Of a stretch of DNA of 64,000 nucleotides, positions 17,092 to 53,517 are shown one piece after another. Position numbers and translations under genes: made by a program. The notes under the pieces are model-generated. The model had not been told where the DNA came from. It ran no database searches and saw only the letters and a list, made by a program, of their open reading frames with translations. Positions within the stretch are counted from its first letter, which is position 1. Every line of letters starts with the position of its first letter. The DNA comes from a virus. The DNA lies in the IMG/VR virus record IMGVR_UViG_3300017782_004332, positions 1 to 64,000 of that record, one strand, 5' to 3'.

Positions 17092-17122
17092 TTGACAACA
17101 TATGTAAAAGGTGCTATAAATA
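17092..17122 (+). promoter_or_regulatory. Composite sigma70 and late promoter of the tmRNA
   Basis: TTGACA-N17-TATAAA overlapping TATAAATA. Confidence 0.7.
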
Positions 17123-17127
17123 TAAGT

Positions 17128-17585
17128 GTAATTGTTGACAGCATCGTATGTCACAAGAACAGGACCCGGGGGCGGTACCCGGCGCCTCCACCATAAACAC
17201 ATGGAGTTAAAAATGGTAGTAGATTTTAAGGAAAAATGTAGGATTTATTACATGGTAAAAGGCAATTTAGTAGGATTAAGCAAAAAGCAAATTGAAGAAT
17301 CCTACGATAGTTACTTTAAAAGACTCTGGGGAAACCATGAAGCAGTGTACAGAGAACAAGGCTTCGAAGAAAACTATCGTGTGTTTATGATGGGGGCGAA
17401 ATAGGATCGACTGGCTTGTTAAGGGTGAAAGAGATTACCGGTAAGGAACGACCGAGCGTATATGGGGAGACTCATGCTACTGTCCAAAACTATAACTGCA
17501 AACGATAATTTTGCATCTGAAGAGTTACGCCTAGCGGCTTAATTCGACGGGGTTGGCAACTTACCTGGCAACAGAAAAGTTGCGT
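17128..17585 (+). ncRNA. ssrA: Circularly permuted two-piece tmRNA (alphaproteobacterial type)
   Basis: Acceptor piece ends CGCCTCC-A-CCA at 17193. Coding piece starts GGGGGCGAAATAGGATCGAC at 17392, giving a G3:U acceptor pair. Tag ANDNFASEELRLAA* at 17498-17542; CCTGGCAACAGAA tail. Outer ends are approximate. Confidence 0.93.
17213..17404 (+). CDS. 63-aa ORF within the tmRNA intervening segment
   Basis: GGAG RBS 6 nt upstream; open through the whole intervening segment; stop lies 13 nt inside the coding piece. Confidence 0.55.
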   Translation: MVVDFKEKCRIYYMVKGNLVGLSKKQIEESYDSYFKRLWGNHEAVYREQGFEENYRVFMMGAK

Positions 17586-17610
17586 TTTACTAGACGCAAA
17601 GGAGTTTTAC

Positions 17611-18054
17611 ATGCGTACTATCTTTTTAGCAACATTCGTTGCTTTAATTACAACTACTGCTAGTGCTTCAACAACAGTAGTAACAGATCATTACAAAACT
17701 GTAATGAAACAAATTCCATACACGCAGGAAACTTGTCGACTAGTTGATGTTCCTGTATATGGGACTGTAGACTCAGAGCCTACAACAGGTGATATTCTCA
17801 CTGGCGCTATTATTGGTGGCGTTATTGGAAATAACATCAAAGGAGAAAAAAATGGCGGTGCCGCTGGTGCTGTCATTGGTGGATTGCTAGGTGCAAACAA
17901 TAAGAATAAAAAGCAAACTATTGTAGGGTATCGGCAAGAAGAACAGTGTAATACTATCACAGAGTATACACGTTCGACCGAAGAGGTATATGATTACAGT
18001 ACTGTTAGATTTACTGACGGTGGTCGCGAATATACACTGCGATTTAAGAAGTAA
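17611..18054 (+). CDS. Secreted glycine-zipper 2TM protein
   Basis: Signal peptide; GAIIGGVIG...GAVIGGLLG. Confidence 0.8.
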   Translation: MRTIFLATFVALITTTASASTTVVTDHYKTVMKQIPYTQETCRLVDVPVYGTVDSEPTTGDILTGAIIGGVIGNNIKGEKNGGAAGAVIGGLLGANNKNKKQTIVGYRQEEQCNTITEYTRSTEEVYDYSTVRFTDGGREYTLRFKK

Positions 18055-43474: not shown

Positions 43475-45538
43475 ATGGCTGATAACAGGTATTACGAATT
43501 AGCAACACACAACGAAGCACAATTTGATGAATTGTTTCTAGAGATAACAGGAACAGCATCAAGCCCAGATACAATTCCAGATAGAGCAGTTGAAAACACA
43601 GAATACTTTCAACATAGTCCTGTGCGTGGAGAATTTTTACTTACTGACGATGAAGCAGAAAATTTAAAAACAGATGCAAGAATAAAATACATTCAACTAT
43701 CACCAGACAAGTATCCTGATATTTTTAACGCAACTGAAGATGACCTTCGTGCAGACGTTACAGGTAATGAATATGAAAGATATAGTTTTTCTGTTAAGAA
43801 CTATCAGTTCTGGGCAAATAGTGGGGCGATATCAAGTGCATTTGGTACAGGCGCGGCAGATCTTAATCATGCATCAAATCAACTTTATAGAATGGGTCAA
43901 CAAAGAAACCCATGGATTGTAAGTGGTACTAGTAGTACAACTGCTATCTCAGATACTATTACACAACGAGGTGCAGGAGAAGATATAGATATTATTTGTG
44001 CTGATAACGGAACATGGATTGGCCATGTTGAATTTATTAATACAGGTGTTACTAATGCTGTTAATCCAGATGATTACACAGGCGGTAATGTTTTACCCGG
44101 CAACGGATATTGTGATGTATTAGATGTTATTTTAGATGGACCTTATTATATAGATCCAGATTGGTTTAACGCTGATGCGGCGACTAGATTAACCACACGT
44201 TGGGACGGAACAACAGTGCCTGTAGAAAGTGTTGCTAGAACATGGTGGGGAAACAGTTCTCAACGTTCTGCCGCATTTGCTAGTGCAGGAACAGTAACAA
44301 TAAGTTCATTTTACACAAGAGATGGTGTACATGGATCTAACACAACACATCCAACAGGTGCCGCGGCTACACACGGAACTCAGTGTGCAAGTTTGATATA
44401 CGGTCGTACACACGGTTGGGCATACAACGCAAACAAATGGCATTTAAATTTATACGGCGCTAGTAACGCAGGGTCAATTGAGCGTGGGTTTGATATTCAA
44501 AAGATTTTCCATGAAAACAAACCTAACAATTCAAGATACGGAACTAAAGATCCAACTATAAGTTCAAACAGTTGGGGATATAGAGCAGACAAGTCAGGAA
44601 CACATTATTATTTTCGTGATAGCGGAGCAGTAAGTTATCCTGGATCAGTTGACGAACCAGAATTTTTAAAGTATATGGGTATAGATGGAGATGGTGGTCG
44701 TTGGAAATCAGAATTTTATGATAATAGTTTAACTCAGGCTGGAGAAGAATTAGTAAACAGTGGAGTTATTTTTGTAGTGGCGGCTGGCAACAGTGGACAG
44801 ATGCAAGTTAATCCAAGCCATCCTAATTACGATAATAGAATTGCTAACAATAATACTGATAGTTTTTACAATACCACTTACAGTAGTTTTGGTTATAGTG
44901 TTACAGGGTCTACAAATAGAAGAGGTTTCCCACAACACATTGGTAAATCAGTAAGTCAAAGTTCACAAGGTGATACAGTAAACTTTCCTGCTATTAACGT
45001 AGGAGCACTAGATGATTCATTTCAAACTGGTCCATTAGAACGTAAAGTTAATTATAGTGATATGGGGAATGCTATTGACTTATACGCACCTGCAGACGGA
45101 ACACTTGCGGCGGCAGTAGGAACATATGGAACTGATGTTGCACGTCATGATGATACTTACACAGATCTATCAACAACAGATTGTCGTGATACACGCTTTA
45201 GTGGTACTTCAGCGGCATGTCCAGTTGCGGCAGGATTTTTAGCAACTATCTTACAATACAATAGAGGTTGGACTTATACTGATGTACGAAATTGGATTAC
45301 AACTAATGTTCAAGGTGTTGACAGCACCAACGAATTTTATGTAGGCACAGAAGATACTACAGCCGAAAGCGCCGGTTGGGCTGATCGCAACAAACCACAA
45401 AATAGTGCAGATGATGTACGAGTTCTTTATCTAGCACCTTTTACAATTTCAACACCCGACCCACAAACAAACCCTACTGTTTCAATTGGTAATGGATTAA
45501 CGTTCAGTAAAGGTCTAGTTCTTAAAAGACGTGTGTAG
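43475..45538 (+). CDS. Subtilisin-like serine peptidase (S8)
   Basis: D (ADNG), H (HGTQCAS), N (AAGNS), S (FSGTSAACP). Confidence 0.88.
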   Translation: MADNRYYELATHNEAQFDELFLEITGTASSPDTIPDRAVENTEYFQHSPVRGEFLLTDDEAENLKTDARIKYIQLSPDKYPDIFNATEDDLRADVTGNEYERYSFSVKNYQFWANSGAISSAFGTGAADLNHASNQLYRMGQQRNPWIVSGTSSTTAISDTITQRGAGEDIDIICADNGTWIGHVEFINTGVTNAVNPDDYTGGNVLPGNGYCDVLDVILDGPYYIDPDWFNADAATRLTTRWDGTTVPVESVARTWWGNSSQRSAAFASAGTVTISSFYTRDGVHGSNTTHPTGAAATHGTQCASLIYGRTHGWAYNANKWHLNLYGASNAGSIERGFDIQKIFHENKPNNSRYGTKDPTISSNSWGYRADKSGTHYYFRDSGAVSYPGSVDEPEFLKYMGIDGDGGRWKSEFYDNSLTQAGEELVNSGVIFVVAAGNSGQMQVNPSHPNYDNRIANNNTDSFYNTTYSSFGYSVTGSTNRRGFPQHIGKSVSQSSQGDTVNFPAINVGALDDSFQTGPLERKVNYSDMGNAIDLYAPADGTLAAAVGTYGTDVARHDDTYTDLSTTDCRDTRFSGTSAACPVAAGFLATILQYNRGWTYTDVRNWITTNVQGVDSTNEFYVGTEDTTAESAGWADRNKPQNSADDVRVLYLAPFTISTPDPQTNPTVSIGNGLTFSKGLVLKRRV

Positions 45539-45585: not shown

Positions 45586-45864
45586 ATGGATTTTTTAACG
45601 TTTATCGGTGAAGTTGGTTTTCCTATAGCAGGAGCAATCGCCGCAGGCGTATTTGTTTTCACAACATTAAAATTTATTCTAGCAAGTGTAACAGGATCTG
45701 TACAAGGTCTTAAAAATATTATCAATGCACTAGACAATCGTGTGCAAACAATGAATAATGATCTAATTAAAATTGATGCCCTACTATCTCATGTAGTTGG
45801 GGTTAAACCTAACATAGAAAGATTAGCCGCGAACGAAGGCAAGGAAGATGCAAGGAGAGATTAA
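45586..45864 (+). CDS. Small membrane protein, GFPI family (paralog of 46246..46566)
   Basis: GFPIAG TM segment followed by LDNRV..MNND coiled coil. Confidence 0.7.
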   Translation: MDFLTFIGEVGFPIAGAIAAGVFVFTTLKFILASVTGSVQGLKNIINALDNRVQTMNNDLIKIDALLSHVVGVKPNIERLAANEGKEDARRD

Positions 45865-46245: not shown

Positions 46246-46566
46246 ATGACATCAGAGTTAGCGGCGGCAATAAAAGACTTTGGCTTTCCTATTGTTGCGG
46301 CAATGGGTTTAGGTTACTTTGTCTACTATGTTTGGCAATGGGTAACACTACAAGTTAAACCTGTTCTAAGTGATGCTAGTGCAACACTTATTAAATTAGT
46401 AGATCGTATTCGTATGCTAGACAACGATATGATTAGACTAAACACAAAATTATCTATGATACTTGAATACTATCAGAAAAAAGGTATGGAACCTGATAAG
46501 GATCTAGAAAAAGTTATTACAAAATATCAATCTCAAAGTAATACACTTAAACAAGATAAAAAATAA
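46246..46566 (+). CDS. Small membrane protein, GFPI family
   Basis: GFPIVAA TM segment followed by LVDRI..LDND. Confidence 0.7.
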   Translation: MTSELAAAIKDFGFPIVAAMGLGYFVYYVWQWVTLQVKPVLSDASATLIKLVDRIRMLDNDMIRLNTKLSMILEYYQKKGMEPDKDLEKVITKYQSQSNTLKQDKK

Positions 46567-48612
46567 TTATTTGGTTGTTGCTATAAAGACGCCGTTCCAG
46601 TCTTTAGGTAAGTCTTGTGTTTTCTGATATTTACAACGTTCAATCCACATATCATAATAAGCATCCATTTGTCCATCAAATTGTCCTTTAAGGTCTTTAC
46701 ACATTTTAATAGCAATATCAAAACGTTGATCTTTATATTCTTTGTGCATATGATCGTGTAGTTCTTTTGCCTTAGCATGATCTTTTATAACAATATCTAA
46801 TACTGTCCATATACCTATTCCTACACTCTTGCCTTTAACAGCAAGATCATCTACTTTTAAGTAGAAGAAATCATTCTTAGTTGCTTTATAAGTTGTTTCA
46901 CCTACTAATAGCAAACATCCGTATTCTTTACACTTGCTTTCAATTCTTGCGGCTGTGCTGACGGCATCACCAAGTACATCGTAGGAGTGTCTTGCTGTCG
47001 ACCCCATTTCTCCAAGGTAACCAAGTCCGGAGTTAATACCCGCTCCCATACCGATGGCTGGCCTTCCTTCTGCTGTAATTTTTTCATTAAACTTCTCCAC
47101 TGCTCGTAGCATATTCAATCCAGTGCGGACTGCACTCTTAGGATGATCTGGATCATCAAGTGGTGCACCATGTACATGCATACTTGCATCTCCTATATAC
47201 TTAATTATCATTCCGTTTTCGTTTAAAACAGGTAAAGTAATAGCGTCCATATATGAGTTCATAAGTGTTGTCAATCCTTTTACATCATCTCCAAAACTTT
47301 CACCCAAAGGAGTAAAGCCTCTCAGATCACTGAAGCAGATTGAAATTTCTTTCTTCATGCCTTCTTTGATCAGTGCAGGATTTTCTTGTAGCATACGCAC
47401 AACTGTTGGTGATGCATATCCTGCGAACTGTTTCTTAATTGCTTGTTTTTCAAAGAACTCTTTGGAAAATCGATTGAACACAGAATGGAAACCAACAATA
47501 GTAGTTACTAGTACTATCCAACTCCAATCCCATAACTGTAGATGCCCTATAAACGCTGTATAAGCACCGTACACAGGCGCTATGATTACTGTAAGCATAG
47601 TAGTACCAACGACCCAGTAAGGCGCTTTAAACGCTATTATAATTAGAATAAGACCTATAATAGTAGCAGTTATATACTCTAAAAACGTAGCATAATCAAA
47701 ACGTACAATAGTATCCCCATTAATGATAGTTTGGAGACTTGTGCCTATAAGTTCGTGTGCATATCGTTCTCCGTTTGGAGTAGCAATAATACTGCCTATA
47801 CCTTCTGCTGTAGTTCCAATAATAACTGTTTTGCCTGCAAATTGTGTGTAATCTTGTTCTGTTATACTGTAGGTAGGAAACTGCTTGTTCCAACGTAGCC
47901 ATATCTGTCCATTTGCATCTGTTTTGATTGTGGCGTACTTTGGAATACGCATTGCAGTAATACCGCCTTCTTGCGTTTTAACTTGATAACTTGGATCTCC
48001 AACAGCAACTCTGATGGCTTCAATTGCTATAGCAGGATATGTTTCGTTGCCTACACGTACAATAAGTGGCATTCTACGTACAACCCCGTCTATCTCTGAA
48101 CCTGTGTTTAAAACTCCAACACCGTCTGCATTTAATCCTAATAATTCTATTGGTCCTAACATGCCAGGCCATTCAAACAACCATGGCATAGGATCGCCTA
48201 TCTTAGCAACACCTCGTGGTACAGAATTCTTGTTTGCATTTCGCGAACCTACTTGTCCTATGACTACAGCATTACCTACTAATGCTTGAGCAAGTTCCAT
48301 GTCACCACCAAGTCTATCTTCCTCTGAAAATAATATAGGCAGTACAATTACTCCTGCACCTGACTCACGTAACTTCCATATAACATCAGCGAGTACTGAA
48401 CGTTTCCAAGGCCATTGCCCATACTGCTCGATCGCTTTTTCGTCTATCTCAAGTATGGCGATATCTTCGCTAACAACTGGAGTATCGTATTGTTGAACAA
48501 CATCAAATGCTTTTAGTCTCAATAGTTGCTTAACATAAGGATCTGAAAATCCGTATATTGTAAGAAATGCTAAAGTAATCAGGGCGGTTGCCCAGTGGGT
48601 TACATATTTCAT
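46567..48612 (-). CDS. CHASE2-domain class III adenylate/guanylate cyclase
   Basis: IDE..YGQWPW.R CHASE2, three TM helices, FSDLRGFT, KYIGDA, GEMG..YDVLGDAVSTAARIE; start at 48612 or 48618. Confidence 0.92.
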   Translation of the reverse strand: MKYVTHWATALITLAFLTIYGFSDPYVKQLLRLKAFDVVQQYDTPVVSEDIAILEIDEKAIEQYGQWPWKRSVLADVIWKLRESGAGVIVLPILFSEEDRLGGDMELAQALVGNAVVIGQVGSRNANKNSVPRGVAKIGDPMPWLFEWPGMLGPIELLGLNADGVGVLNTGSEIDGVVRRMPLIVRVGNETYPAIAIEAIRVAVGDPSYQVKTQEGGITAMRIPKYATIKTDANGQIWLRWNKQFPTYSITEQDYTQFAGKTVIIGTTAEGIGSIIATPNGERYAHELIGTSLQTIINGDTIVRFDYATFLEYITATIIGLILIIIAFKAPYWVVGTTMLTVIIAPVYGAYTAFIGHLQLWDWSWIVLVTTIVGFHSVFNRFSKEFFEKQAIKKQFAGYASPTVVRMLQENPALIKEGMKKEISICFSDLRGFTPLGESFGDDVKGLTTLMNSYMDAITLPVLNENGMIIKYIGDASMHVHGAPLDDPDHPKSAVRTGLNMLRAVEKFNEKITAEGRPAIGMGAGINSGLGYLGEMGSTARHSYDVLGDAVSTAARIESKCKEYGCLLLVGETTYKATKNDFFYLKVDDLAVKGKSVGIGIWTVLDIVIKDHAKAKELHDHMHKEYKDQRFDIAIKMCKDLKGQFDGQMDAYYDMWIERCKYQKTQDLPKDWNGVFIATTK

Positions 48613-48631
48613 ACTCATATTTACCTAGTCA

Positions 48632-48682
48632 GACCGTCAAATTTCCAACATTCTTGTTGTACAAATTATTTCGACCGTCAAA
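48632..48682. repeat. GACCGTCAAA direct repeat in the divergent intergenic region
   Basis: Copies at 48632-48641 and 48673-48682. Confidence 0.7.
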
Positions 48683-48739
48683 ATTTTGTACCAGCATTAT
48701 TTGTGGGGTGGCGTTGGTAAATACGTATGGAGGGCAATA

Positions 48740-49210
48740 ATGCGTAATAACATAACATTTAGAGTAGTACCACTAATCGGACTATTAATCGTTACTTTAA
48801 CAGCAAATTCTGTTGCTAGTGAACTAGTACATGAATTCAAGAATCCTTCCTTCTCAGGACAGGGTTATAGTAACCATGTCTTGTCAATAGAACAATTACA
48901 ATTCCAACGTAAAAAAGAAGCACAGGAAAAGGCAGAGGCAGATGCGGCCAAGGCTAAGCGTGAAGCAGAAAGCACTACACTAGCAAAGTTCTTGAACAAT
49001 GTGGAATCTCGAATTTATGCTCAACTCTCTAAACAGTTAGTAGATAATATGTTTACTGACGATGGAGACACATCAGGCACTGCTGAGATTGAAGGTGCAA
49101 CAATTTATTGGGTCAAAGATACTACCTCGGATACTATTACTGTAACAATTACAAATGAAGACGGTACTACCACAGAGATAGTTGTTCCATTAAGCGGATT
49201 TGGATTTTAA
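48740..49210 (+). CDS. csgF: Curli assembly protein CsgF-like
   Basis: Signal peptide, then SELVHEFKNPSFSG; ESRIYAQLS; T.I.VP C-terminus. Confidence 0.8.
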   Translation: MRNNITFRVVPLIGLLIVTLTANSVASELVHEFKNPSFSGQGYSNHVLSIEQLQFQRKKEAQEKAEADAAKAKREAESTTLAKFLNNVESRIYAQLSKQLVDNMFTDDGDTSGTAEIEGATIYWVKDTTSDTITVTITNEDGTTTEIVVPLSGFGF

Positions 49211-49214
49211 GAAA

Positions 49215-50249
49215 ATGAGTAAGATATTGGGTCTGTTTGTGTTATTAACACTACTAGGTGGCTGTGCGACTACTATGCCCGATTCTATGGTCAAAGATCC
49301 ACAAGCGGCAAGAAGTCCTATTGCAAGTATTTTAAAAACAACACCTGAGTTAGACGGACCATTAATCACTATAGCACTTTATAGTTTTACAGATAAAACA
49401 GGACAACGTAAGCCTAGTCAAAATTTTAGTCAATTAAGTTCAGCAGTTACACAAGGTGCTGAAGTTTGGGTCATTGACGCACTACAAAAAGTAGGTAATG
49501 GAACTTACTTTACAGTTTTAGAAAGAATAGGATTAGATAATTTAGTAAAAGAAAGGCAATTAATTAGATCAACAAGGGAGATATATGAAGGCAAGAAAGG
49601 GCAGAATAAATTAAAACCAATGAAGTTTGCAGGTTTAATTTTAGAAGGCGGTGTTGTTGGTTATGACTCGAACATAACCAGTGGTGGCACAGGAGCAAGA
49701 TACTTTGGTATCGGTGCTAACACACAATATCGTACTGACAAAGTTACAGTTGCAATAAGAATTGTGAGTGTACAAACTGGAGAAGTATTATTAAGTGTAG
49801 CCACTGAAAAAACAATCGCCAGTTATTCGTCCGGAGCGGATGTATTTAGGTTTCTTGATTTAGGGACAAAAGCATTAGAAATTGAGGCTGGTGCGGCAAT
49901 CAATGAACCGACCAATTATGCTGTGAGGTCCGCTATTGAAGCGGCTATAGTTGAATTGGTGAAAAATGGAGAAATAAAAGGTCTTTGGAAGTTTAAAGGA
50001 AAAGTGTACAAAGAAAAAGTTGTAGAGGTGCCGAACCAACACAATGAAGTCAAAGTAGATACTCCTTTACCAAACCTCCGCCCACTGCCAGACGTTGAGG
50101 CGTTTAAAAAGTGGCCGGGTCAGACTTTGTATTGTTCAGAGGATAATCTGTGTATACCATCAGATGTTGCTGTGATGCAGTTCAAGTATGAAAGACTGAG
50201 ACAAGAAAACAAAGAAAACAAAGATAGCGAGGATAATAATGATGAATAA
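49215..50249 (+). CDS. csgG: Curli secretion channel CsgG/HfaB lipoprotein
   Basis: Lipobox LGGC; FTDKTGQRK, SSAVTQGA, LERIGLDNL.KERQLIR, GGTGARYFGIG, NEP. Confidence 0.92.
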   Translation: MSKILGLFVLLTLLGGCATTMPDSMVKDPQAARSPIASILKTTPELDGPLITIALYSFTDKTGQRKPSQNFSQLSSAVTQGAEVWVIDALQKVGNGTYFTVLERIGLDNLVKERQLIRSTREIYEGKKGQNKLKPMKFAGLILEGGVVGYDSNITSGGTGARYFGIGANTQYRTDKVTVAIRIVSVQTGEVLLSVATEKTIASYSSGADVFRFLDLGTKALEIEAGAAINEPTNYAVRSAIEAAIVELVKNGEIKGLWKFKGKVYKEKVVEVPNQHNEVKVDTPLPNLRPLPDVEAFKKWPGQTLYCSEDNLCIPSDVAVMQFKYERLRQENKENKDSEDNNDE

Positions 50250-50946
50250 ATCATTTGCAATAAGAAATATCCTTTTTGTGGCTATGTTAATCTTTATTTC
50301 ACCGGTGCAGGCGAATGACATTTACATTCAACAGTCAGGTGACAATTTGGATTTAGATATATCACAAGACGGACAAAACAACGTAATCGGTACATCACAA
50401 ACTGGTGTGACTCTTACCGGTAACGCCATGACGTTTAACATTGACCAAATTGGTGGTGCTAACGTTGTATCAGCAATAGTTAAAGGTGTAACTTACACAG
50501 GTAATATTGATCTTACTGGTGACAGTAATGATGTAGCATTACTCTGTGATAGTGCAGGAGCAGGAAACTGTGATACTGTAAGTTTGAGTATTGACATAAC
50601 TGGTTCAAGTGCAGATATTAATGTAAGTGTAGGTGAAGCGGCAGACGCAGAAACCTTCACTGGTACAATAGATATCACAAGTGGTGCATCTGAAACAGTT
50701 ACACTAACAGTAGACGGTAAAAGTGCAATAGCAGATATTGACATTTCAAACAGTTTAGGTAGTGCAGGTAATACAGCAGTGATTGACATTAATGATGATG
50801 GCGATGTCAACGGACACACTTTAACACACAGTCATACAGGAGATGGCGGATTGATTAATATTACGCAGAGCGGGTTATACGATAATATAATTAATCTTAC
50901 AACCAGTGGTGACAGTGCTGATATCGACATAACGCAGGACGATTAA
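50239..50946 (+). CDS. Secreted curlin-like repeat protein
   Basis: Signal peptide; NDIYIQQSGD, SQDGQNN, DQIGGAN, ITQSG..N. Confidence 0.72.
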   Translation: MMNKSFAIRNILFVAMLIFISPVQANDIYIQQSGDNLDLDISQDGQNNVIGTSQTGVTLTGNAMTFNIDQIGGANVVSAIVKGVTYTGNIDLTGDSNDVALLCDSAGAGNCDTVSLSIDITGSSADINVSVGEAADAETFTGTIDITSGASETVTLTVDGKSAIADIDISNSLGSAGNTAVIDINDDGDVNGHTLTHSHTGDGGLINITQSGLYDNIINLTTSGDSADIDITQDD

Positions 50947-50947
50947 C

Positions 50948-52054
50948 ATGCTAAAACATGTTCTCATACATACCGTCCTCTTATTTGGTTTTTCATTCCC
51001 TGCCCTTGCGACTATTGGCGATGTTATCCAACAAGAAGGTAACGCTGTCATTGAACGTGAGGCAGGAGAAATAGTTACAAGCCAAAAAGATACTGATGTG
51101 TTTAGTATGGACACAGTATTAACACAGCAAGGAGCAACTTCTATTCAATTTATAGACGATACAAGAGTTGACGTTACTCCGCATAGTAAATTAGTAATAG
51201 ACGATTTTGTTTATGATCCTAATTCTAAAACAGGTGCTCTGTCGTTAAAAGCATCTTTAGGAACTGTTAGATACGCAAGTGGACAAATAGCAAAAAATTC
51301 AAGACAAAATGTCAAGATAAAAACACCAACAGCAGTGATTGGTGTTAGAGGAACAGATTTTACCATGACCGTCGATGAGACTGGTAGTACTATGGTAATC
51401 CTACTGCCCAGTTGTACAACAAATGGGATATGTATAGTAGGAGAAATTTCAGTGGAGTCAGACGTGGGTATAGTAATACTCAATCAGGCCTTCCAAGTTA
51501 CTTCTGTTGACACTCCTAAGAGTGCTCCACTGAAACCCTTATTGTTAGATCCAACTAATTTGATCATTAATAATATGTTGATTATACGCAAACCTGTGTA
51601 TGACGATGAACAACAAGAATATGAAAGAGTTAGAAAGTTAGGCGACTTCTTAGGCGTTGACTTTTTATCCTTTGATGAACTTAATACAAACTACTTTGCA
51701 GAAAGTGAAAAAGGTCTTTGGATGACCGATTTAGACATAGACTTCTTAGGTCATAACTTTCTTGCAAACGTATTAGATCAAATTAATCAAGCATTAGCAA
51801 GACTTATGCGTGGAGCATTAGACTCAAGACAAAAGGGTATACAGTTAGGTAAAGATCCAGAAACAGGAATAGAATTGTATGATCAAAACCCAGACTGGGT
51901 ATTAAGACGTGATGACGGATTAGGAAACTTTTATGAATTACGTTTAGATCAACAGTATGGTTATAATATTAATATGCAACAGAACGATTTTGAATACAGA
52001 GACTACCAACTTGGAGATGGACAAAATGAAATTGACATTGTCCAAACACAATAA
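50948..52054 (+). CDS. Secreted FecR-domain protein
   Basis: Signal peptide; F.DDT.V..S.L.ID.F.Y; KTPTAVIGVRGTDF. Confidence 0.85.
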   Translation: MLKHVLIHTVLLFGFSFPALATIGDVIQQEGNAVIEREAGEIVTSQKDTDVFSMDTVLTQQGATSIQFIDDTRVDVTPHSKLVIDDFVYDPNSKTGALSLKASLGTVRYASGQIAKNSRQNVKIKTPTAVIGVRGTDFTMTVDETGSTMVILLPSCTTNGICIVGEISVESDVGIVILNQAFQVTSVDTPKSAPLKPLLLDPTNLIINNMLIIRKPVYDDEQQEYERVRKLGDFLGVDFLSFDELNTNYFAESEKGLWMTDLDIDFLGHNFLANVLDQINQALARLMRGALDSRQKGIQLGKDPETGIELYDQNPDWVLRRDDGLGNFYELRLDQQYGYNINMQQNDFEYRDYQLGDGQNEIDIVQTQ

Positions 52055-53517
52055 TGTTTGAGAGATTTATTATAAGATTGGCACTTGTATTATTTGTACT
52101 TATGGTGATGTTAGCATCTAAACCTGTACAGGCTAATGACGCATTTATATATTATAAAAATAGTGGTACCTATGCTACTACAAGCCAGTACAACAACTTA
52201 AAAACAGAACTTGAAGATGCAGGCTTTACTGTTTCAAGTAGCACAAGTGGTACTGTAAGTTCAAGTGATGTGTCAGGTCAGGACCTTGTGATTGATATCA
52301 CAGGTGGTTCAAACTGTGGTAGTACTTGTAAATCAGTGTATGACAGTTATGTTAGTGGTGGTGGTAAATTAGTTATAGTAGGAACCTACGGAGCAACCAA
52401 CAGAAATAGCAGTATAGAAGCACTGATCGAAACTAAGATGAGTGTAGGAAGTTTCACTTTAGGTGGAGGTTGTAGTACTTGTTATAGTTCAGTTGCTGTA
52501 GGAAATTACGCTTCAACAGGTGTAGCAGGTGAGAATGTTTTACCAGGTACAGACCACTATATGTACAGCGTATCTGGTGGTACCGCAATGGCTAATAACT
52601 CCACCAGTAGTTCTAATATAAGAATGTGGCACAAATGGGACTATGGTAGTAATGGTGGAAGTGTAGCAGTTACTTTTGGTTATGGACAATTTCTTTCAAC
52701 TCACACGTATGCAAGTAATATGAATGACTTCTTGTATCGAGCAATGCAAGAAGAAGGATTAATTACAACAGCGTCTTATACTTCAAGCATCAGTAACGCA
52801 CAGACCACACAAATGACAACATCAAGAGGTGTAACACACAATGGTAATGGAATATACATTAATCAAGTAGGCAACAGTAATTCACTTACTATTGTACAAG
52901 ACGGCAATGATAACTTAATAGCAGGTGTTGGTAGTACAACAAACAGTTTAGTTGATGCAGATATTACAGGAAATAACAACACTACTACACTAAAACAAAA
53001 AGGTAACAACAATGTTATGTTGTTTGATATTACAGGCGATTCTAATACGACAACTGTTGATCAAGGTAGTACATCAGGTGCAGATGATAATAGAGTTGAG
53101 TTTGATATTAATGGCGACACTAATACAACAAGTATAACACAAAATCATAACAACGGTATAGGAACTAATGGACACTTCTTTGCATTAGATTTAGATGGTG
53201 ACAACAACAATGTTTTAGCAAGTCAACTCAATGACGGAGATAAAAAAGCATTCCTAAGTGTACAAGGTGATGATAACGACATTGATCTAATACAACAAGG
53301 TGCAGGTTCGCACTATGCAGAAATTGCTGTTGGCAGTGATCAAACTGTTGACATTACACAAGACGGCAGTGGACAACATAACACTTCAGTGTCTATGTCA
53401 GGGTTTAGTGCAACACTTGACCTTGATCAATCTGGTTCAACAAATCAAACATATTCAATAAACCAATCTTGTATAAATGCAAATGGTTGTGGTACAACTA
53501 CTGTAACACAACAATAA
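52054..53517 (+). CDS. Secreted protein with N-terminal globular domain and C-terminal curlin repeats
   Basis: Many Q-x-G-x-x-N repeats (NQVGNSN, VQDGNDN, KQKGNNN, QGDDN, QDGSGQHN). Confidence 0.75.
   Translation: MFERFIIRLALVLFVLMVMLASKPVQANDAFIYYKNSGTYATTSQYNNLKTELEDAGFTVSSSTSGTVSSSDVSGQDLVIDITGGSNCGSTCKSVYDSYVSGGGKLVIVGTYGATNRNSSIEALIETKMSVGSFTLGGGCSTCYSSVAVGNYASTGVAGENVLPGTDHYMYSVSGGTAMANNSTSSSNIRMWHKWDYGSNGGSVAVTFGYGQFLSTHTYASNMNDFLYRAMQEEGLITTASYTSSISNAQTTQMTTSRGVTHNGNGIYINQVGNSNSLTIVQDGNDNLIAGVGSTTNSLVDADITGNNNTTTLKQKGNNNVMLFDITGDSNTTTVDQGSTSGADDNRVEFDINGDTNTTSITQNHNNGIGTNGHFFALDLDGDNNNVLASQLNDGDKKAFLSVQGDDNDIDLIQQGAGSHYAEIAVGSDQTVDITQDGSGQHNTSVSMSGFSATLDLDQSGSTNQTYSINQSCINANGCGTTTVTQQ

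Follow-up and report, generated by a model that had tools for sequence, protein, structure and literature searches.

The stretch of viral DNA considered here comprises positions 1 to 64,000 of IMG/VR record IMGVR_UViG_3300017782_004332 and is referred to throughout as the window; the viral record that carries it is a fragment of 104.9 kb. Within the window lies a block of genes for a curli-like export apparatus, namely the channel proteins CsgF and CsgG, two secreted curlin-like proteins and an exported FecR-fold protein, which stands divergently beside the gene of a membrane-bound CHASE2 nucleotide cyclase. The locus is an intact, rearranged member of the viral type VIII secretion system (T8SS, or curli) region that has been published for pelagiphages and methylophages, and of the isolates two Kyanoviridae come nearest, the OM43 methylophage Melnitz and the SAR11 myophage HTVC008M. 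A preliminary description of the DNA, made from its letters alone, had read the block as a candidate trans-envelope signalling system, a reading to which our analysis lends partial support and which we weigh below against several alternatives.

Gene content and extent of the block

The six genes named in the preliminary description were all recovered at the coordinates and with the domains given there. An operon of csgF, csgG, a curlin gene, the FecR gene and a second curlin gene occupies 48740-53517 on the plus strand, and the CHASE2/class III cyclase gene lies divergently at 46567-48618 on the minus strand; the junctions between the plus-strand genes are overlaps of 1-11 nt or gaps of 1 nt, in keeping with the tight coupling claimed for this operon. 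All five of its proteins begin with signal-peptide-like N-termini. The extent first given to the block was too small, as two small genes upstream of csgF also belong to it. The features of the locus are as follows.

45586..45864, plus strand: small protein A, 92 aa, an N-terminal transmembrane (TM) segment followed by a coiled coil (phrog_18771, 4.5e-30)
46246..46566, plus strand: small protein B, 106 aa, a paralog of A (phrog_18771, 4.3e-28)
46567..48618, minus strand: membrane cyclase, 683 aa (Pfam CHASE2 3.4e-42, Guanylate_cyc 1.7e-16)
48619..48739, no strand: divergent intergenic region with direct repeats, GGTAAATA and a Shine-Dalgarno sequence
48632-48641 and 48673-48682: direct repeat GACCGTCAAA, with exact copies nowhere else in the window
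48716-48723, csgF side: GGTAAATA, 16 nt before the ATG at 48740
48729-48733, plus strand: Shine-Dalgarno sequence GGAGG, preceding the csgF ATG at 48740
48740..49210, plus strand: CsgF, 156 aa, with signal peptide (Pfam CsgF 3.3e-17; phrog_35372 3e-55)
49200..50249, plus strand: CsgG outer-membrane lipoprotein channel, 349 aa (Pfam CsgG 1.7e-50)
50239..50946, plus strand: curlin-like secreted protein P4, 235 aa, with signal peptide, ending in IDITQDD (Curlin_rpt matched in orthologs)
50948..52054, plus strand: exported FecR-fold protein, 368 aa (Pfam FecR 1.2e-9, residues 56-150)
52054..53517, plus strand: second curlin-repeat protein P6, 487 aa, ending in TVTQQ (Curlin_rpt 6.7e-10)

Two paralogous TM/coiled-coil genes of ~90-116 aa belonging to phrog_18771 stand upstream of csgF in both myophage and podophage relatives. 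Small protein A aligns with genes 5' of csgF in Melnitz and in podophage-type loci, and small protein B is 55% identical to Melnitz gp98 and has homologs that directly precede csgF in relatives, a position from which it is separated in the window by the inverted cyclase gene. This is the place before csgF to which Wittmers 2022 (PMC9599517) assigned one or two "histidine kinase" (HK) genes, and small protein A is probably one of these HK genes, although a kinase domain is absent from the A/B-type proteins in Pfam searches, even at E <= 1. The idea that the podophage HK might carry a CHASE2 domain was rejected, the genes in question being the same ~90-116-aa TM/coiled-coil type; the ~620-1020-aa genes that lie 3' of FecR in podophages gave no Pfam match.

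The secretion channel and its putative substrates

CsgG, which in the canonical system forms a nonameric lipoprotein channel, can be aligned with its Escherichia coli counterpart over residues 10-284 (3.3e-52), the lipobox LLGGC falling on the E. coli lipobox and the register of the constriction loop being uncertain. Past the aligned region the phage protein carries a charged, Cys-containing C-terminal extension of ~65-75 aa (residues ~276-349; 50025-50249), and CsgG occurs among relatives in two lengths, of ~265-285 aa or ~340-355 aa. The mature N-terminus of CsgF reads SELVHEFKNPSFSG and includes FKNPSFSG, which we take to resemble a motif of E. coli CsgF, whose N-terminal peptide inserts into CsgG; sequence searches of the PDB with CsgF returned zero matches at E <= 1.

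The two curlin-like proteins differ in how readily they are recognized. P6 consists of a signal peptide, an N-terminal alpha/beta domain (~28-235) and ~18 regular strands (266-459), which an AlphaFold2 (AF2) model with a predicted local distance difference test (pLDDT) score of 67 arranges as a regular strand-turn-strand array. Its N-terminal domain (52135-52760) yielded weak flavodoxin-, ThuA- and IFT52-N-like matches in a fold search, none at E <= 0.001, and is confined to a subset of relatives; taken as a whole, the relatives have second curlins of 140 to 507 aa. The window copy of P4 falls below the Pfam threshold, 26 of 42 P4 orthologs match Curlin_rpt (best 4.4e-7), and P4 cross-matches the repeats of P6; it is a candidate fibre subunit of the CsgA/B kind. 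Neither the gating factor CsgE (PF10627) nor the chaperone CsgC (PF10610) has a match in the 104.9-kb record, and CsgD was also not found there, which extends to the whole fragment an earlier remark that CsgE and CsgD are not visible in the window.

The FecR-fold protein

The FecR protein is built from a signal peptide, an N-terminal FecR/PupR-like beta domain (22-215), a linker and a C-terminal unit (300-368). In its AF2 model (pLDDT 82) the N-terminal domain and the six-strand C-terminal unit are confident and the helical linker is of low confidence. Cellular relatives share only residues ~20-215, the remainder being specific to the phage family. The N-terminal domain superimposes on the PupR CCSSD (6ovk: Z 15.0, root-mean-square deviation 2.5 over 133 residues; 4m0n: Z 13.9), and residues 20-116 also resemble the RIN domain of MpIBP (5ix9, Z 8.2), a periplasmic domain that prevents this RTX adhesin from passing fully through its outer-membrane pore (PMC5550230). 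The protein starts with a signal-peptide-like helix (residues 2-14) that is directly followed by the beta domain, and since it has neither an anti-sigma domain nor a TM anchor, it is not a FecR regulator; nothing was found that ties it to iron.

The C-terminus of the protein, IDIVQTQ, is a terminal motif of the curlin type. Defined as hydrophobic-x-hydrophobic-x-Q plus one to three terminal residues, this motif occurs in 157 of 160 FecR homologs and 163 of 235 curlin-like proteins, compared with 20 of 1861 background open reading frames (ORFs). A curlin-repeat nature of the C-terminal unit as a whole was not supported (hhalign probability 1%; Curlin_rpt in 1 of 53), the shared part being the tail only, and for this C-terminal part an Atlas search gave no usable match and a PDB sequence search none. 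A prediction of a complex between mature FecR (22-368) and the periplasmic domain of the cyclase (28-310), made with 53-row alignments for both partners, scored 0.00 and gives no verdict either way.

The CHASE2 cyclase

The cyclase is laid out as a TM segment, a periplasmic CHASE2 domain (Pfam match at residues 19-321), three TM segments, a cytoplasmic class III cyclase domain and a tail of ~80 aa, with hydrophobic segments at 6-24, 312-330, 340-358 and 362-380. It shares 70% identity with its Melnitz counterpart and 46% with that of HTVC008M, and it matches solved class III adenylate cyclases at 1e-20. The metal-binding residues D431 and D477, the substrate-binding K473 and the transition-state R558 are invariant in 95 of 95 distinct phage homologs. 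The specificity position 547 is D in the window, and these homologs divide there into 62 with D, 26 with S and 7 with T; the position of the canonical transition-state Asn is Ser (S554) in the window and in 61 of the 95. The two positions co-vary, the combinations being D/S (61, window included), S/N (26), T/N (7) and D/N (1), so that D/S on the one hand and S or T with N on the other look like two maintained active-site configurations and not like decay. The catalytic core is thus intact and canonical chemistry is not assured; because the Ser variant is not canonical, the activity level and the product of the window cyclase are uncertain.

The divergent intergenic region

Three elements between the cyclase and csgF, namely the repeats (ACCGTCA(A/G)A), GGTAAATA and the Shine-Dalgarno sequence, are kept in the two IMG/VR relatives that share the divergent layout (L003 and L004), in surroundings whose sequence has changed, and the direct repeat is a candidate regulatory site. 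For csgF we prefer the ATG at 48740, which is led by GGAGG, to the TTG at 48686 as most likely the true start, and homologs of csgF are 150-170 aa long. Late-type promoters of the TAAATA kind had been proposed for both directions. On the csgF side such a promoter is plausible, because GGTAAATA is conserved in both divergent-layout relatives and its distance to the csgF ATG is one that other window genes typically show; on the cyclase side the TAAATA (48623-48618, minus strand) overlaps the ATG of the cyclase gene and therefore cannot credibly serve that start as a promoter. The window contains 53 copies of TAAATA. The canonical T4 late promoter TATAAATA was set aside, with three copies in the window, none of them at the locus and their number below chance expectation, and scans of the locus for sigma-70-like promoters and terminators gave results at or under the shuffled expectation.

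Conservation of the block among phages

That csgF and csgG occur in marine myophages, as the preliminary description stated, is well documented: the pelagimyophage curli cluster was described by Zaragoza-Solas 2020 (PMC7029224), that of Melnitz by Buchholz 2022, who suggested a pore that takes part in lysis (PMC9004378), and Wittmers 2022 noted CsgA/B-like repeats together with FecR, an adenylate cyclase and the "histidine kinase" in the curli regions of podo- and myophages, together with the ocean-wide distribution and expression of these regions, and argued for selection on the entire multi-gene block (PMC9599517). In the last survey, viral curli proteins were present at all 65 ocean stations and made up ~0.1% of assembled viral proteins. 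The locus cannot be presented as a new system, since pelagiphage curli regions with both FecR and the adenylate cyclase are already on record (PMC9599517); the set of genes was known before, and the signalling reading placed upon it would seem a reasonable one. The main texts of PMC7029224, PMC9004378 and PMC9599517 contain no mention of CHASE2. The window holds what characterizes the Wittmers-type region, with adjacent csgF and csgG, a curlin gene followed by FecR, and a second curlin gene plus cyclase, as is frequent in myophages, and the six genes of the block are also present in Melnitz and HTVC008M (KC465899 7562-13807).

Our survey of relatives covered 160 IMG/VR loci seeded with the FecR protein or the cyclase of the window, samples that are biased toward close relatives. 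The cyclase and CsgG were kept in all 30 FecR-seeded loci with room on both sides, and FecR and CsgG were present in all 33 cyclase-seeded loci with 6 kb upstream, so that 63 of 63 informative myophage-type loci unite the three. The cyclase gene nonetheless takes four different placements, being downstream and collinear in the majority and otherwise upstream collinear, upstream divergent or downstream convergent. Its adjacency to the block survives rearrangement, which argues for a functional tie. The upstream divergent arrangement was seen in the window and two IMG/VR relatives only (L003/L083 and L004/L084); that the cyclase gene is inverted and lies upstream is the one lineage-specific trait of a block whose remainder was already known.

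Podophage-type clusters, which came to light when a remote FecR representative served as the seed, give a different picture. They retain the small genes, csgF, csgG, a curlin gene and FecR, and carry the CHASE2 cyclase in one exception; in five podophage-type records, one of them estimated to be 99% complete, CHASE2 was found nowhere. It follows that FecR has a role independent of the phage cyclase and has a closer tie with the curli genes than with the cyclase, and the expected co-occurrence of cyclase, FecR and CsgG, strict among myophage-type loci, does not reach the podophage-type clusters.

Parallels in cellular genomes

Scanning species-representative genomes with the FecR alignment gave 70 cellular loci and ~10 phage-like contigs from metagenome-assembled genomes (MAGs). 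The latter (L162-L171), some of which carry the full cassette, were considered as possible cellular sources and are best read as binned phage DNA, because the flanks of 6 of the 10 match other genes of this phage. One of them (L169, Alphaproteobacteria MAG contig JAYNYG010000058.1) has a curlin-repeat gene followed by a FecR gene of the full-length type with 40% identity; searches of this locus found no CsgG, CsgF or cyclase, and GroEL was its sole other match to the window, so that this contig may be either phage or cellular.

A CHASE2 protein is encoded in 26 of the 70 cellular loci and lies within 3 kb of the FecR gene in 25, which come from several phyla; the FecR-CHASE2 loci have a cyclase output in 20 cases and are divergent like the window in 12. 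A third component, a TPR/beta-barrel gene of the surface lipoprotein assembly modifier (Slam) type, belongs to 49 of the 70 loci. In 45 it lies no more than 100 bp from FecR, and 23 unite FecR, CHASE2 and the Slam-like gene. A hidden Markov model built from 8 cellular members of the Slam-like family found 0 matches among the ORFs of the window or in 240 phage loci. Similar arrangements are known from the literature: Campylobacterota have cAMP clusters of a CHASE2 cyclase, a FecR-domain protein, a TPR protein and a phosphodiesterase (PMC9239204), a Burkholderia operon joins a LysM-FecR protein to a CHASE2 kinase (PMC5192318), CHASE2 cyclases of Sinorhizobium meliloti adjoin a FecR-domain gene, as in the pair CyaD1-SMc02177 (PMC5498481), and S. 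meliloti CHASE2 cyclase signalling runs through NsrA, a beta-barrel protein of the outer membrane (PMC13001267). The background that the preliminary description had given, a link between CHASE2 cyclases, FecR-like proteins and outer-membrane partners, is sound, because the bacterial loci (25 of 70) and these four papers agree upon it.

In three Pelagibacter genomes a CHASE2-SpoIIE phosphatase gene shares one operon with two FecR-domain genes, and this operon corresponds, on the side of the host, to the FecR/CHASE2 pair of the phage, its output being a different one. In Pelagibacter sp. HIMB1506 and HIMB1485 (L199 4449-13697; L228 1235-10487) the CHASE2-SpoIIE (PP2C) operon also holds two Slam-like genes. 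As a single case, a 630-aa protein of an uncultured bacterium (L231 1187-3079) fuses an N-terminal match to the CsgG domain (3.2e-8) to a Slam-like TPR/beta-barrel part, and its gene adjoins FecR and CHASE2 genes.

A possible envelope sensor and the alternatives to it

We tentatively favour, at a little short of even likelihood, a reading in which the curli pore and fibre genes work together with a FecR-CHASE2 envelope sensor pair that sets the synthesis of a cyclic nucleoside monophosphate (cNMP). During infection, CsgG and CsgF would supply an outer-membrane channel to a host that has no curli genes of its own, and P4 and P6, once exported by the Sec pathway, would most likely pass through this channel and assemble at the surface. 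The FecR-fold protein and the CHASE2 adenylate cyclase would form a sensor pair of a type widespread in bacteria, with CsgG/F standing where the bacterial clusters have a Slam-like translocon. The N-terminal domain of FecR would stay in the periplasm, its curlin-like C-terminal unit would contact the channel or the fibre, and the CHASE2 domain may sense the state of FecR or the channel and so set cytoplasmic synthesis of a cNMP, probably cyclic AMP. Should the block render infected cells sticky, or enable the phage to sense the cell surface and alter its programme, effects on aggregation, carbon export and phage competition may be expected; and as little is understood of the input of CHASE2, a common sensor domain, a compact version in a phage, with a defined set of partners, could offer a tractable model.

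The relay from FecR to CHASE2 that the preliminary description postulated is favoured by the myophage co-occurrence and by the bacterial neighbourhoods, and several observations weigh against it. The podophage-type clusters keep FecR and lack CHASE2, FecR ends in the terminal motif of the curlins themselves, and the proposed promoter on the cyclase side overlaps the start codon, all of which speaks against an obligate relay; the signalling relay cannot be the whole story for FecR. The contact with the fibre that its C-terminal unit would make finds no profile similarity to curlins outside the tail, and where the canonical enzyme has its transition-state Asn the window's cyclase carries Ser. 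The 104.9-kb phage record yielded no cNMP-binding domain, just as the preliminary description had seen no Crp-like effector in the window, and three Pelagibacter genomes (1.4-1.5 Mb) contain neither a cNMP-binding domain nor a class III cyclase, so that the output is without a visible reader; CsgG was not found in the same three genomes, Pelagibacter being the likely host clade. Finally, cells infected with Melnitz showed no clumping (Buchholz 2022, PMC9004378).

The strongest alternative, which we consider unlikely overall but worth serious attention, makes FecR a structural or assembly part of the curli machine, acting as a periplasmic plug or anchor for CsgG, as a fibre nucleator or as a substitute for CsgE or CsgC, with no cyclase signalling; the cyclase and the second curlin would form a detachable supplement that receives an input of its own. 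FecR accompanies csgF, csgG and curlin in podophage-type clusters devoid of CHASE2, carries the curlin terminal motif almost throughout its family, and resembles in its N-terminal part the RTX-adhesin retention domain that blocks an outer-membrane pore; CsgE and CsgC were not found in the record, and gain or loss of the cyclase tends to go along with that of the second curlin (also PMC9599517). What a purely structural FecR leaves unexplained is why FecR and CHASE2 are neighbours in many bacteria that have no curli genes, and why the cyclase has stayed by the block across four rearrangements. A structural FecR and a FecR-CHASE2 sensor pair are compatible and do not exclude each other.

A further reading, which we hold to be improbable, would make the block a hybrid derived from the bacterial surface-sensing triad, its Slam-type translocon having been replaced by CsgG/F and FecR spanning the channel so as to report fibre load to the CHASE2 cyclase. 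The N-terminal domain of FecR would then be retained like the plug of an RTX adhesin while its curlin-type C-terminus joins the external fibre, and pulling or loading of the fibre, by cell contact or by a superinfecting phage, would be what is reported to the cyclase; in podophages without a cyclase, FecR might feed the host's own CHASE2-PP2C phosphatase.

It is also quite unlikely, in our estimation, that CsgG and CsgF have been repurposed as a gated pore without fibres, for small-molecule uptake or release or for lysis timing, with the CHASE2 cyclase as a sensor of the envelope state. The gated-pore and lysis-timing idea comes from Buchholz 2022 (PMC9004378) and Zaragoza-Solas 2020 (PMC7029224), and the lack of a CsgE match in the record, the C-terminal extension of CsgG, the two TM/coiled-coil proteins of holin-like size that always precede csgF, and the Melnitz cultures without clumping would all suit it. 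Both earlier papers, however, assumed csgA/B to be missing, yet the operon conserves two curlin-repeat proteins that are secreted; the model of P6 shows a regular strand-turn-strand array, and the curlins would be superfluous to such a pore. Least probable, and in our view a distant prospect, is that the cyclase serves host takeover or counter-defence through a product that acts on host physiology without the curli genes, and adjoins them through shared late expression or a hypervariable island: its variable-island setting (PMC7029224), its own transcription unit on the opposite strand and specificity-position variants (D/S versus S or T with N) that could mean different products would fit, whereas its place beside the block in 63 of 63 informative loci, a conserved periplasmic CHASE2 domain that implies extracytoplasmic input, and a likely host clade without canonical cNMP receptors speak against it.

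Genome context

The window has a GC content of ~36%, with nearly all genes on one strand, and contains phage-typical genes such as those for ribonucleotide reductase, GroEL and tail fibre-like proteins, as well as six tRNAs and a two-piece (permuted) tmRNA at 17097-17633, predicted by ARAGORN, with the tag peptide ANDNFASEELRLAA. An ssrA gene is annotated in a comparable region of Melnitz, for which control by a glutamine riboswitch has been reported (PMC9004378). Just 5' of the curli block, at 43475-45538, lies the gene of a 687-aa subtilase-family (Peptidase_S8) protein (phrog_9158). The variable island that houses the curli region is situated between the replication and structural modules (PMC7029224).

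Comparison with known systems

The closest known system is the viral T8SS of pelagiphages, with which the locus shares the order csgF, csgG, curlin, FecR and curlin, the cyclase family, the two small upstream genes and a T4-like (Kyanoviridae-type) genome context. It differs in that the cyclase gene is inverted and moved 5', to between small gene B and csgF. The pelagiphage papers call FecR an iron regulator and the small genes histidine kinases, and neither label was reproduced here.

With the canonical curli systems of Enterobacteria (csgBAC/csgDEFG) and the reduced operons of alphaproteobacteria, the block has in common the CsgG lipoprotein channel, CsgF and secreted curlin-repeat proteins. 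In contrast to them, it has no CsgE, CsgC or CsgD that could be found, adds the FecR-fold protein, the CHASE2 cyclase, two small TM proteins and a fusion of a curlin to a globular domain, and has as its carrier a lytic phage, the likely hosts of which are without curli genes. The likeness to the FecR/PupR anti-sigma regulators is limited to the Pfam FecR domain and the fold of the periplasmic juxtamembrane subdomain (6ovk, 4m0n), the phage protein having a cleavable signal peptide instead of the cytoplasmic anti-sigma domain and TM segment and acting in another setting.

Finally, the bacterial clusters of CHASE2, FecR and Slam-like genes share with the phage block a homologous FecR N-terminal domain, at ~30-40% identity over residues ~20-215, a CHASE2-3TM-cyclase gene that is encoded alongside and often divergently, and an outer-membrane channel gene within the block. 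Where those clusters have the Slam-like gene, the phage has CsgG/CsgF and curlins, and its FecR protein adds a C-terminal unit of its own with a curlin-type tail.

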